A stretch of DNA of 64,000 bases. It comes from Octopus vulgaris (lineage: Eukaryota). The stretch lies in the NCBI GenBank assembly GCA_951406725.2, contig OX597819.1:40486001-40550000 (forward strand), written 5' to 3'. Position numbers and translations under genes: made by a program. Each line of letters opens with the position of its first letter. The first letter of the stretch is position 1. This document shows, in pieces, positions 16,075 through 43,533 of the stretch. The notes beneath the pieces were generated by a model. That model worked only from the letters and a program-made list of their open reading frames with translations, ran no database searches and was not told the origin of the DNA.

Positions 16075-17126
16075 ATGGACTTTAAGTCCCCGCAGAAACA
16101 CAAAAGAACCACAACACAGGATTTTAATCGGAAGGATGGGCTAAAAAAAGATGATGATGATGGAGTTTTGGCCGCCACGGCAGCAACAGCCCCGTGTTTT
16201 GTGTGTGGGGCACAGGCGGCGGAGCAGTATATTGACAGTAAGTCGACAAATAACATAAATAGACCTACAGATGTTAAGATTCAGACAAAAAGTTTTTGTT
16301 CCGCATGTAGGAATTTTTACCAGCATAGTACCTTAGGAGATGCACACTTAACTTATGTCTGTATTACTCAGAGTCAGATTAACAGACGTATATCATTGAG
16401 GAATTCCAATTTGTTGACTTCGAAATCACCAGTTTCTGGATTATGTGTTATCAAAACAGATATTGTAAATAAATGCCGTGCTTGTTGGTATCTCAAATGC
16501 ATCTCTTTTGGACTCAATGAAGCTTTGGAAATCGCGAATGTTAACCAATCTAAACATCAGAAAGACAGACCTCCGAATACCAACAATAACAACAAAGATC
16601 CCAGTGATGATATAATTCGGAACAAAAACGATTCATGTTCGTCAGAAAAGGAATCCAAGAATCCAAATTTATCTGCCTCGTCAAATGAAAGTTCAAGTGT
16701 AGATGTGGCAACCAAGAATAAACAGACACAACGCCAGCAATATCAGCCCGTTCGTTCAGACTCTTCCGAGAAAACGGCTATCTCTCAATCAAAACCGAAA
16801 CTATCTACAATGCAAAAGCAACTCGCAGGATCGACTCAAATGGATAATTCTCACACTACTAAAAGCTCAATCCAAGGAAATGGGCCGTCGGTGTCTACAG
16901 TATCATCCGGAGTAGCCTCTTTGCAACTCGCACAAGGGAAGTCGTTAAAAGTTTTTAATCAACAACAGAAATCAGTGAAACAATTAAAACCAATTGCTCG
17001 AACTCAAGGGATAACAAAAACTACCGCAGTTCAACCTCAAACAAAAACGTCTGTTTCCAATCAGACGAAAAGTTCGGTTACGAGAGAGATTACCAATAAT
17101 CCTGTTTCCTCAAAGGAATCACAAAA
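16075..17126 (+). CDS. Coding exon 1 of a multi-DBD nuclear-receptor-like gene; contains degenerate DBD1 (16195-16515) with insertions in both fingers
   Basis: ATG at 16075. Motifs CFVC...CSACRNFY...C...C...CRACWYLKCISFGL. Donor AA|gtaagc at 17127 (phase 2), matching the phase of the next exon. An upstream non-coding exon cannot be excluded. Confidence 0.82.
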
Positions 17127-19545
17127 GTAAGCCTTTAAATGTAATTTTTACTCTGCATCCCTCTTTAAACACCCGCATACATACATATACAGACACGCAG
17201 ACATATGTACACACCCAAAATTCCTTTATTACAACAATTATAGCAGTAAACTAATGAGAGAAATATTGCCTAGACAACAAGACAACGTGGTCGTTCGGTC
17301 TATTCGAATTAGCAGCCAAGTTTCCACATGCTACCGTCATAAATAGGGATATAGTATGTTAGAAAATGTATTGCTATACATCTCCAAAAAGATGAGATAG
17401 TCTCGACTGGATTACTTTTTAACCACAAATCTATTTTTCTGCAATGATCCGGAATTAAGTAACAACTAAGGCCAAAATATACTTACTTGCATTACTGAGG
17501 AAATTAAAGGATGCTTTGACCATTTAATTTCATCATATATCAAAAACTGATTTTAATTCTCTTTATTCTCGAATTTTAATTTCACTAATACATACACACA
17601 TATATTGCCACCATGAGTTATGGTACTCAAAGGTGCTTATTTTCTCCTTCTTTTCCCACGGATAGCACTCAGATTTATTACACCCAACATTCCCCCAAAT
17701 TTCTATTTCACATTAATAGGATACTCGTTTTAAGTTTACAACTAAATGATACACACACACACATAGGGCTCGCTAGAAATAGCAGTCAGATCTCCCGCAA
17801 ATCACACTCTACCGTCTTAAAGAATACACTTAGACAATGTAGTCTTTCATATATAAAATATGTGGGATGCCCACAGCTAGAATGTCTTTAATCATAGGTC
17901 TGTGTTGTCGGGGATGACCTAGTATTAAACAACAATATTCTCTACTATAACGATCCTGCAATAGCATCTATAATATCAAAGTGTCATCGAGTGAATCCCT
18001 TTTCAAATCACACCGTACTGTGACACTTTAGACAATATAGGTCCTACATATTCTCTGAAACGATAAGATTGTACGACAGATGTGTTTTTGATCATAGGCC
18101 TGCCAGGTCAGGGTAGCTTCATGGTTGAACAATAAGAAGTACATGCTTATTCAAAGGCCTCAGCAGAGATCTACATTGAAGTTCATTTAGTTAAACCTGA
18201 CTTGAGCATTCAGTCATAGTTATATTAAGTTATAGTTGCTGTTAGCATGTAAAACACTGGATCACCGTTGATTTCAATGATACGTATCTAGTTGTTCAAT
18301 CAATTGAACTACCAGCTCCTTGGTTTAGCATGTAAGTGGCTGAGTATTCTACAGATCCGTGTATCCTCAATGTAATTACAGGAACGATCAATCTAATGGT
18401 CTTCTGCTCGCTGCGAGTTTGAACTTGAGGCTTCATGGTTGTGAACTTACAACATTTAAACTAATTAATCGGATTTGCAATTCAGAGATGTCAGCTGTTC
18501 TTTGTTTACAGTCCACTACTAAAGCGTGTCTCCGGCGTATTGGCATGTCTTGACATGTGAGTACTGGACACAGATGTCATTATTTCATACAAACGGTGTC
18601 ATTAGTTTGCAGTCCTTAGCAAATTCATGTCCAGATTGTTAGTTGTTGATTAGAATAGGGGAGGAAAGGCATTTGGTCTGGCAAAATTCTGTTTCAGCAA
18701 AGTCTTATCTGACCTATGCAAGCATGGAAAAGTAGACATAAAAATGATGATGACGATGATAACAAGAATGATGTATATATGATGAGCTCTCATACAGTTT
18801 CTGTTTACCAGTTCTACTCACAACATTGGTTGACCTAAAGGTACAGTAGAAGACATTTTCCGAAGGTGCTAAACATTGGGATAAAACCCAAAACTGCATG
18901 ATAATAATAATAATGATAAAGCAAACTCTGCATCCTCACAGACATGCCTGTACCTATTATTTATGGTTGGCATTAGGAAGGGCATCCAGCCATAGAAACC
19001 ATGTCAAAGCAGACAGTGGAGCCTGGTGCTGCTTGCCAGCTTCTGTCACACTGTCCAACCCAGCCAGCATGGAAGACAGATGTTAAATGATGATGATATA
19101 TGTGTGTGCATTTGTGTAAATTAGTGTATTGTTCTATGCTCCTCAAAATGTAGCTTATCTATTTGATTCATCATCATCGTTTAACGTCCGCTTTCCATGC
19201 TAGCATGGGTTGGACGGTTCAACTGGGGTCTGGGAAGCCAGAAGGCTGCACCAGGCCCAGTCTGATCTGGTAGTGTTTCTACAGCTGGATGCCCTTCCTA
19301 ACGCCAACCACTCCGTGAGTGTAGTGGGTGCTTTTTATGTGCCACCGGCACAGGTGCCAGATGAGGCTGGCAACGGCCACAATCGGATGGTGCTTTTTAC
19401 GTGCCACTGGCATGGAGGCCAGACGAGGCTGGTGAATAAAATAATGCCAGGATGAAATAGATGTTAGATTTGATATGATTTACCAAAAAATTCTTGAAGT
19501 AGTTTCTTAGTTATTAAAGTCACTAAAAGGAAAAGAAAACATCCA

Positions 19546-19587
<42 letters not shown>

Positions 19588-20969
19588 CCTACCTTTTATA
19601 AGCTAGATTATCAAATTTTTATGATAAATCAGGCAAATTTGGAGTTTTTATCATTTAAGTTTACTTCGTTTTAGCTGCAGTAACTACATGCATAAGTAAG
19701 TTGCAGTCACCACATCATTGGATGCAAGCTGTTTAATCTATCACACAATCAAAAAGTGCAGGTGACCTACAGTGTAGCACCAAACTGAAAGCACAGCACA
19801 ATTTGATCTGATACCTTTGTGCCATGCATCTATAAAAATGCTAAACAAAATTATATTGGGACATGATTTGGAGAGAGTTATCAAAACATCAATTCATTTT
19901 CTCCCTTTCATTTCTGAAATAAAACTAAACAATTTTTCTGACTTCCATCACCGCCACTTAATGTCCATGTTGGTATGTGTTAGACAGTTTAACAGGATCC
20001 AATGGGTCCAAGGACTGCATCGTGCTCCAGTGTCTGCTTTGACATGGTTTCTATAGCCAGGTACCCTTCCTAATGCCATTCACTTGTACTGAGTGCTTTT
20101 TCTTGTACCACCAGCATTAAATAATTTTAGCTGAAAATGGTCTCTATTCTGCTAGGTGATACTAACTTTTAAAATTATTCTTAAATTGCAAACAGATGTC
20201 ATAGCATTAGACCTAAATCTAAAGTGTCACATGTCTACAATACAGCATGCAAATATCTCAGCAATAGGTTGTGTGGTTTCAGGTTCAGTCCCACTACATA
20301 GCATCTTGGGCAACTGTTGTCTACCATAGTTCTGTGCCACCTATGCGTTTTCAGTAAATTTGATAGATGGAAATTGATGACAGCTTCTTGTATATGTGTG
20401 TGTATGTGTGCATATGCACATGAATAGTGACATTCTATGATGTCACTTGTTACTGTCTGAGTGAAATGGTGATATGATGTTTACATTCCTTGTTGACATC
20501 ATAAACCAGTCACTCTACACTTTTGAAGATGAGGAGAAATCAAGAATTCTCTTACTTGAGAAAAACATTTGGTGACCGGGAAGAGCATCTGGCCATAAAA
20601 CTCTGTCTCAAATAAGCCCCTGCTCAACCCATGCTTGCATGGAAAAACACTCATTGAACAAATGAAACACCTTAACATTAAAATGCCCTGCATGCAAATC
20701 TCAACTGTAAAATGTCTGCAGCTTGTGTATACTCATTAATGAAATACTGCTTGCACCACCTCAACATATGCTGCACATACACACTTCAACATTAACATAT
20801 TTTGTTAAGGTTATATACACATCTTAACAATAAAATGGGACCCATACACTTAAGAAGCACAGGCATGGCTGTTTGGTTAAGTTTCCATCTTACATAGTTT
20901 CTATATCATTCCCATTTGTGTGGCACACTGATGTTGATGATGATGAATTCCAATATTTTAAATCTAGGT

Positions 20970-42539: not shown

Positions 42540-43022
42540 AATAGATGAACATCAATGGAATTTGTATCTTTGTGGTACCAGTGCCGGTGGCACACAAGAA
42601 AACCATCCGAACGTGGCCGTAGCCAGTACCGCATCGACTGGCCTCCGTGCTGTGGGCACATAACAAACACCATCCGATCGTGGCCGTTCGCCAGCCTCAT
42701 CTGGCACCTGTGTCGGTGGCACATAAAAACACCATCCGAGCGTGGCCGTCTGCCAGCCTCGTCTGGCACCTGTGTCGGTGGCACATAAAAAACACCATCC
42801 GAGCGTGGCCGTTCGCCAGTCTCGTCTGGCACCTGTGTCGGTGGCACATAAAATCACCCACTACACTCTCGGAGTGGTTGGCGTTAGGAAGGGCATCCAG
42901 CTGTAGAAACACTGCCAGATCTGACTGGCCTGGTGCAGCCTTCGGGCTCCCCAGACCCCAGTTGAACCGTCCAACCCATGCTAGCATGGAAAACGGACGC
43001 TAAATGATGATGATGATGATGA
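42540..43022 (+). repeat. Young copy of the (GAT)n-tailed repeat with 4-5 tandem units of about 60 bp
   Basis: Unit ggtggcacataaaaacaccatccgagcgtggccgttcgccagcctcgtctggcacctgtgtc repeated at 42580-42860. Confidence 0.85.
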
Positions 43023-43092
43023 AAACAAGTAAACTATCTCTATGATTATGTGTATCAACAATTTTATTATTTTCTTTCTTTTTTTCTTTTAG

Positions 43093-43533
43093 CACCACAA
43101 ATAACTATGAAAAGAAGAAGCTTTTATGTAACCCACGTCACTTTCCGTGTAAAGTTTGTGGAGATCTTGCATCTGGTATACATTATGGCCACTTCATTTG
43201 TGAAGGCTGTAAAGGATTTTTCCGTCGTAGCATACGCAAGAAAATGGTTTATTTGTGCATTAGCAAAAATTGTATAATCAATAAGTTCACAAGGACTCGT
43301 TGTGCCTACTGTAGGCTACAAAAATGTTTGACTCTTGGCATGTCAAAAGAAGCCAGTCGAAAGGGCCGGCGAACAAAGGAAAACCAAATGAAACTAATGA
43401 GCCAACCCCGTGAAGAATGCAAAATGTATGAGGAGTACACAAATCTAAACTCTGCACCTAGACCATGGTCCAATAACACAATACCACAGAGGGAACCAGT
43501 AGAATATATTGAAGATGCTGATCAACCTAAAAT
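43093..43533 (+). CDS. Coding exon 6, canonical DBD14 (43148-43342) with C-terminal extension
   Basis: Long polypyrimidine acceptor ttttag|C (phase 2). [32 protein letters not shown]...[24 protein letters not shown]. Ends at AT|gtaagt, either a donor or read-through to TAA at 43535-43537. Confidence 0.92.

Follow-up and report, generated by a model that had tools for sequence, protein, structure and literature searches.

The 64,000-nucleotide stretch of Octopus vulgaris DNA analysed here (the window: contig OX597819.1, positions 40,486,001 to 40,550,000 of the forward strand, or G000:C6:40486001-40550000) carries an array of fourteen nuclear-receptor DNA-binding domains (DBDs) that, in fused proteins from four named species, is followed by the enzyme selenocysteine lyase (SCLY). 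The locus is probably the coleoid SCLY gene, in which six further exons, a second set lying far upstream, encode the fourteen domains. This gene structure is real, conserved, unusual and well supported; its function we infer. The protein P0001 (CAI9724068.1), named Octopus vulgaris, matches the window at about 100% in its long exons. The exons are as follows.

16078..17126, plus strand: coding part of exon 1, with the ATG at 16078, DBD1 at 16192-16524 (carrying two insertions) and a low-complexity linker; from domain alignment and contigs of runs X1 and X2.
26909..35749, plus strand: exon 2, 8841 nucleotides, DBD2 to DBD10 with long Ser/Thr/Asn-rich linkers; from Pfam and contigs of runs X1, X2, X5 and X8.
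37748..38105, plus strand: exon 3, DBD11; from Pfam, protein mapping and GT-AG ends.
38728..39053, plus strand: exon 4, DBD12; from Pfam, protein mapping and GT-AG ends.
41515..41784, plus strand: exon 5, DBD13; from Pfam, protein mapping and GT-AG ends.
43093..43533, plus strand: exon 6, the canonical DBD14 (43142-43351), a linker of about 60 amino acids and a phase-2 donor, joined by database models to SCLY exon 2; from P0001, P0003, P0006, P0007, P0127 and P0128.
59058..59134, plus strand: first coding exon of the short SCLY, 25 codons with a phase-2 donor; matches the N-terminus of O. bimaculoides P0005.
G000:C6:40562094-40580929: shared SCLY exons 2-13, outside the window; from protein-to-genome mapping.

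All six array exons have GT-AG boundaries, and together they form a frame of 3761 codons with 0 stops that differs from O. sinensis P0003 by 24 substitutions. Exon 1 is spliced to exon 2, because in contigs from runs X1 and X2 position 17126 is followed at once by 26909. The contigs compared with the window come from 4 of the 24 listed runs; none of the listed runs is recorded as RNA, and RNA origin is deduced from the exact GT-AG join. Every array DBD is intronless, and the NR1-type DBDs elsewhere in the genome are split by an intron after CEGCK. In the 36 kb upstream, a six-frame listing of open reading frames inspected by eye revealed no gene-like frame, only repeat-like ones. The P0001 model begins inside DBD1 and treats an in-frame poly-Ser stretch (28014-28331) as an intron. 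Most of this stretch is exonic, because contigs hold about 125 nucleotides between 28197 and 28323.

In the fused proteins, SCLY occupies the place after DBD14 that belongs to the ligand-binding domain (LBD) of a receptor. There is no LBD match at the locus, as 0 of the 48 PF00104 matches in the genome fall on the contig of the window and none is present in P0128, P0006 or P0007. The fused proteins are found in O. vulgaris (P0001), O. sinensis (P0003), Argonauta (P0006) and Sepia pharaonis (P0128). In P0001 and P0003, DBD14 continues in frame into SCLY exon 2. P0006 consists of DBD11-14 and SCLY, and P0128 of DBD7-14 and SCLY with a partly collapsed model of DBD12-13; another Sepia protein, P0251, whose accession adjoins that of P0128 and whose contig is equally long, contains DBD1-2. 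The possibility that the fusion is only an annotation chimera was rejected, because it is present on the Logan contigs P0007 and P0127. P0007 is a 685-amino-acid frame encompassing DBD13, DBD14 and SCLY on a contig of 2578 nucleotides, and its SCLY part is 87% identical to cuttlefish SCLY and 67% to that of octopus. This contig is likely derived from spliced RNA, since SCLY exons 2-13 span 19 kb of the octopus genome. P0127 and P0008 have an identical SCLY part but differ at the N-terminus, which is the exon-6 linker in P0127 and the short native sequence in P0008; alternative first exons would be expected to produce this pattern.

Phase 2 is the donor phase of exon 6 as well as of SCLY's own exon 1. 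Given this separate first exon for SCLY, at 59058, one locus is predicted to yield both a short enzyme and a chimera of about 4200 amino acids. The contig of 8823 nucleotides from run X1 extends 2673 nucleotides beyond exon 2. Exons 3-6 are expected to account for 1395 of these, and the remaining 1278 come within 14 nucleotides of the 1264 expected from SCLY exon 2 to the stop codon. A search for full-length orthologs among proteins of 1620-5156 amino acids gave 1 cluster among 7162 candidates, and a shorter search with residues 1-3300 gave 10 proteins, including 2 orthologs. Only 2 of the 120 best SCLY-region matches below 2300 amino acids carry zf-C4 (P0006 and P0007), and the bivalve, gastropod, chiton and vertebrate matches are without it. 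Thus, the fusion looks coleoid-specific in a sampling that does not include Nautilus. Databases name the gene 'selenocysteine lyase' or 'uncharacterized'.

The enzyme part contains a class-V aminotransferase domain (PF00266) with the pyridoxal phosphate (PLP) lysine motif VGHKF. The short form matches rat SCLY (3A9X) and human SCLY (3GZC) across the whole class-V PLP domain (E 4e-122), and octopus and Sepia SCLY are 63% identical. Catalytic residues were mapped by motif and by alignment to the SCLY structures, and the motifs for the PLP Lys, the Asp and the Cys-His pair (VGHKF, LEHDS and ACHS) are present in 5/5 fused proteins checked. PMC6770646 gives C388, H389 and D146 as catalytic or specificity residues of human SCLY, and describes the enzyme as a homodimer that has been observed in nuclei, where its role is unknown. 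AlphaFold models DBD13, DBD14 and SCLY as separate confident units with low-confidence linkers between them.

A preliminary description, made from the letters of the window, had listed fourteen different P-boxes of which only the last is canonical. Each of these hexamers does occur once, on the plus strand, in the order claimed and inside a nuclear-receptor C4 domain, and CEGCKG is found in DBD14 alone. The fourteen-domain observation is far beyond chance. The P-box positions (all plus strand), together with the domain starts in exon 2, are given below.

DBD1: P-box CSACRN at 16297.
DBD2, from 26958: P-box CPDCVL at 27015.
DBD3, from 27372: P-box CPECEV at 27429.
DBD4, from 28941: P-box CPDCRI at 28998.
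DBD5, from 29400: P-box CTDCKA at 29457.
DBD6, from 30873: P-box CLKCSV at 30930.
DBD7, from 33195: P-box CSSCRS at 33252.
DBD8, from 34077: P-box CWSCTI at 34134.
DBD9, from 34827: P-box CRNCLC at 34884.
DBD10, from 35361: P-box CLNCSV at 35418.
DBD11: P-box CFPCRS at 37851.
DBD12: P-box CHNCRV at 38785.
DBD13: P-box CRSCRN at 41618.
DBD14: P-box CEGCKG at 43199.

The Pfam zf-C4 profile (PF00105) recognizes nine stretches in exon 2 (E 2.7e-142) and one in each of exons 3-6 (E 5.6e-23 to 6e-28), and 13 of the 14 domains lie in exons above the Pfam cut-off. DBD1, with its two insertions, falls just under it (20.9 vs 21.1 bits, E 0.0005). The AlphaFold model of DBD1 has a mean confidence (pLDDT) of 62.9, and its listed Foldseek rows are all nuclear-receptor DBDs, with a best E of 0.019 and none at or below 0.001. 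In the alignment, all fourteen domains retain their zinc cysteines, along with the core Phe and the motif KC...G, apart from Cys-to-His zinc-ligand swaps in the second fingers of DBD2 (27072-27110) and DBD9 (34940-34975). Both swaps are common to Sepia.

DNA contacts were scored in RXR numbering, and we take positions 146, 184 and 191 to be among them. The contacts at 153, 154, 156, 157, 160, 161 and 147 are drawn from PMC3908500. DBD14 keeps 8/8 canonical contacts, and does so in 4/4 sequences; DBD2-13 keep 2-5 of 8, and 15 other octopus receptor DBDs keep 6-8. Among DBD2-13, E153 is lost in 12/12 and R161 in 10/12. R191 is replaced by Trp in DBD1-10. DBD10 and DBD11 retain R161 and a basic residue at 160 and have net charges of +9/+10, and DBD10 matches Sepia at 4/4 P-box positions and 9/9 contacts. 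These two domains are, to judge from their residues, the most DNA-like of DBD2-13 and the strongest candidates for a new sequence specificity.

A tree of 67 DBDs over 79 columns, from which DBD1 and the collapsed DBD12-13 of Sepia were left out, pairs domains across species by position with bootstrap values of 97-100 for DBD2 (three rows together), 3, 4, 8, 9, 10, 11, 13 and 14. The group of DBD7 takes in a long-branch row; for DBD5, 6 and 12 there is no partner. Across coleoids the domains are orthologous by position, and conserved. The array has been kept since the lineages of octopods and cuttlefish parted, about 270 million years ago. One orthologous fragment, P0132 (an ENA contig), has an extra degenerate domain with the P-box CNACYN between DBD3 and DBD4, which indicates that the array is not equally long in all lineages.

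Nine ortholog pairs were scored, one for each of DBD2, 3, 4, 7, 8, 9, 10, 11 and 13, by comparing P0003 with Sepia, P0007 or P0132. Identical residues make up 89/90 of zinc and core positions, 22/36 of P-box positions, 59/81 of other contacts and 162/234 of the remaining positions. The P-box and the remaining positions give p 0.34, a rough value because residues are not independent and there are only nine pairs. Between different array positions within octopus, by comparison, only 33/264 P-box residues are identical vs 606/1716 non-contact residues. This pair of results suggests that the recognition helix diversified during array expansion and then largely settled. Linkers are much less similar, with 108/506 identical residues between species in three of them. 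The DBDs are 58-96% identical to those of Sepia and the inter-DBD linkers 21-50%, mostly 21-41%. DBD14 is identical to Sepia at 67/70 positions and its P-box is the same at 4/4 between species. The linker from DBD14 to SCLY is identical at 29/61, above most other linkers.

The earlier proposal that the scaffold was kept and the recognition helix diverged is borne out by the comparison within one species. When P-boxes are compared across cephalopod orthologs, as had been recommended, they prove to be better conserved than linkers, though no better than the other residues of the domain. The accompanying idea that the divergent domains read new sequences gains little from these counts, as their P-boxes are no more conserved than their surroundings and most basic contacts are lost. 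That description overlooked the lack of an LBD and the continuation of the protein into SCLY.

Our best reading, to which we give slightly better than an even chance, is that DBD14 anchors the giant form on AGGTCA-type DNA, that SCLY dimerises, and that most other DBDs are repurposed binding modules. The full chimera of about 4200 amino acids would be translated and the giant isoform located in the nucleus. There, DBD14 would bind AGGTCA-type sites, helped by two AT-hook-like motifs, and the protein would dimerise through SCLY, as a receptor does through its LBD, perhaps including dimers with the short isoform. Lyase activity would in this way be brought to chromatin, and selenocysteine might be turned over locally at bound sites. 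Most of the other thirteen domains would act as repurposed modules and not as standard sequence readers. Because only DBD14 keeps the standard DNA-reading residues, the giant form likely tethers the enzyme to DNA. Moreover, the linkers between array domains range from about 20 to 700 amino acids, like beads on a string, so that multivalent protein binding or loose nucleic-acid binding would suit the array better than one contiguous site. The linker motifs in question are listed here.

31809..32216, plus strand: linker block between DBD6 and DBD7 with four [ER]-[IV]-[IL]-P motifs, all four in Sepia P0128.
32934..32957, plus strand: AT-hook-like motif RKRGRPRK, with the RGRP consensus.
33417..33437, plus strand: second AT-hook-like motif KRGRPPK, directly 3' of DBD7, kept in Sepia P0128.

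We take 32934..32957 to be AT-hook-like from its RGRP consensus, and it has no Pfam match. Sepia P0128 has four RGRP motifs. The block at 31809-32216 is strongly conserved with Sepia, and its four motifs are possibly short protein-binding motifs. Between DBD5 and DBD6, the segments at about 29850-29920 and about 30530-30670 are charged and, by eye, coiled-coil-like.

Several observations weigh against the reading of a DBD14-anchored enzyme. The AlphaFold model has no contact that ties SCLY to DBD14. This species' reads do not show the junction between exon 6 and SCLY, and the remainder of 1278 nucleotides on the X1 contig could result from read-through of intron 6. Unspliced exon 6 reaches a stop two codons into intron 6, and the Logan sequences P0129-P0131 end there, where DNA and unspliced RNA are indistinguishable. 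In addition, the Octopus model P0002 ends after DBD12. Between species, the P-boxes of DBD3 and DBD10 (4/4) and of DBD2, 8 and 11 (3/4) fit a new sequence specificity too, and the roughness of the p-value also has to be borne in mind.

One possibility, which we regard as unlikely though worth considering, is that most DBDs are binders of DNA or RNA that have each acquired a distinct new specificity, as in a C2H2 array, and that together they direct the enzyme to an element that is long or repeated. The P-box does diverge between domains more than other positions do, and is conserved between species far above linkers, but it is not more conserved there than other residues, unlike that of DBD14. 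The net charge is zero or positive in every domain, which speaks for this possibility, yet K156, R161 and R191 are mostly lost, and the linkers are not the short, fixed ones needed for a contiguous site. Divergent P-boxes are known in nematode receptors and in receptors with two DBDs (2DBD-NRs), according to PMC3908500 and PMC10497141.

It is less probable still that the working product is a DBD-only protein without an LBD, ending at or before exon 6, with the join to SCLY a tolerated read-through splicing of neighbouring genes. SCLY's own first exon, the immediate stop after unspliced exon 6 and the ends of P0129-P0131 and P0002 would all be explained. However, octopods and cuttlefish have the join in frame at one and the same junction, two Logan contigs or more (P0007 and P0127) carry it, the linker between DBD14 and SCLY is better conserved than most, and the array was not found to have a terminal exon of its own. 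That DBD1-13 are decaying neutral copies is very improbable despite the sub-threshold score and insertions of DBD1, the long branch of DBD5 and the variable array length: the refutation check on decay that accompanied the initial claim shows zinc and core residues kept across lineages and P-boxes above linkers, DBD2 and DBD3 differ from O. bimaculoides at 0/72 and 1/72 positions vs 7/66 and 18/123 in the linkers that follow them, the exon-2 indels in run X8 are all multiples of three (3, 9, 12, 3 and 3), and decay is already contradicted for DBD2-4, 7-11 and 13.

A more far-reaching reading is that coleoids replaced the LBD of a receptor by a PLP enzyme. The result would be an enzyme-coupled transcription factor, dimerised by its lyase, that senses or releases selenium at chromatin and whose thirteen re-specified DBDs read new DNA, RNA or protein targets. 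We consider this doubtful.

DBD14 had been called the ancestral anchor of the array. It is indeed the least changed copy, as its contacts and its identity to Sepia indicate, but as ancestor it is no more than a candidate. In the tree, DBD2-12 are split from canonical receptors by a 95/91 branch, and DBD13 and DBD14 lie in an open fork; the approximately unbiased test does not reject a single clade for the 30 array rows together (p-AU 0.51). DBD14 appears by sequence to be of NR1 type. Its best profile is NR1 (109.8 vs 85.7-102.2 bits) and its best match in the PDB is the RAR-alpha DBD 1dsz (107.9 bits), though its scores are about level for RAR-like domains, HR3-like domains and one second domain of a 2DBD receptor, with 44 identities to the octopus RAR-like DBD and 43 to the HR3-like one. 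The locus was rejected as the octopus RAR gene because a separate RAR-like gene is present on C8. RAR is recorded in bivalves, gastropods and chitons only, in the part of PMC12965858 examined.

The four-residue D-box common to DBD14 and most other domains favours descent of the copies from one ancestor, and two origins are conceivable. An intronless NR1 DBD copy could have been inserted upstream of SCLY, or the array could stem from a 2DBD-NR that lost its LBD. In favour of the second option, the first-domain profile of 2DBD-NRA is the best-scoring one for DBD13 in 2/3 species, its Cys147 is common to 33/45 2DBD-NRA first domains, lower-bound searches of this genome did not turn up a separate 2DBD-NR, and the mollusc table of PMC10497141, in the part shown, lists 2DBD-NRs from bivalves and gastropods only. 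Against it stand the spacer of 23-36 amino acids between DBD13 and DBD14 and the preference of DBD14 for NR1.

Other features were observed in passing. Intron 1 contains, by eye, a degraded element like a long interspersed nuclear element on the minus strand (21330-22630), and the other introns hold many copies of a short interspersed repeat, also by eye. Elsewhere in the genome, G000:C7:72044513-72044587 (L053) nearly duplicates the initial DBD exon of the EcR/LXR-like gene at C1:96933616 but stands alone, the search having found no second half to it. Near-identical intronless NR2E-like DBDs with the P-box CDGCRG are located on different chromosomes, at G000:C2:168278204 and C21:29909897 (L008 and L011).

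In published nuclear receptors, one or two DBDs are combined with an LBD that serves sensing and dimerisation; here, an array of fourteen DBDs runs into a metabolic enzyme. The receptor recognition code could be tested on its thirteen P-box variants, which are natural and stable and share a single scaffold, and the gene provides a concrete handle on the role of SCLY in the nucleus. Within the databases searched, coleoids alone yielded an array of fourteen domains fused with an enzyme. No description of a DBD-array-SCLY gene was found in the literature searched, mostly titles and the starts of abstracts, with subscription journals and supplements outside its scope. The array cannot be claimed as the largest DBD count known, as the representative library missed proteins of 4000 amino acids and the longest of 150 listed has 1796.

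DBD14 is similar in sequence to NR1 receptors (RAR, HR3/ROR and E78). Unlike these, however, the array has intronless DBDs, mostly with a four-residue D-box, and no LBD; the RAR-like gene on C8 has an intron-split DBD. Receptors of the NR0A type (knirps group) resemble the array in having a C4 DBD without an LBD, but have one DBD and no enzyme. Database proteins with 4-6 DBDs (Caenorhabditis brenneri CAL2035663.1, P0133, P0136 and P0137) share with the array its repeated DBDs and diversified P-boxes, but have fewer domains and no SCLY motif; they lie outside the tree and are assumed to be of independent origin. Nuclear-receptor DBDs in numbers of 4-6 with divergent P-boxes are found in P0133, P0136, P0137, P0140, P0142 and P0154, an apparently undescribed recurrent architecture. 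Multiplication of DBDs with P-box drift thus seems to recur, since such proteins exist in other animals, including a nematode.

Atypical receptors described in the parts of PMC10497141 and PMC11589774 consulted have either one DBD without an LBD or two DBDs and an LBD. Receptors of types 2DBD-NRA and 2DBD-NRB (Wu & LoVerde, PMC10497141) resemble the array in having tandem C4 DBDs, a divergent upstream P-box and a last P-box that is canonical or nearly so (CEGCKG or CEGCKK). Their P-P module, EACKK-EGCKG or LPCKS-EGCKK, has a spacer of 17-22 amino acids, and the array has RSCRN-EGCKG with 23-36 between DBD13 and DBD14, against 15-22 in 2DBD-NRs. They differ in that two DBDs are followed by an LBD, whereas the array has fourteen and no LBD. 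With selenocysteine lyase itself, the locus shares the class-V PLP domain and the catalytic motifs, to which one isoform here adds an N-terminal DBD array of 3760 amino acids.

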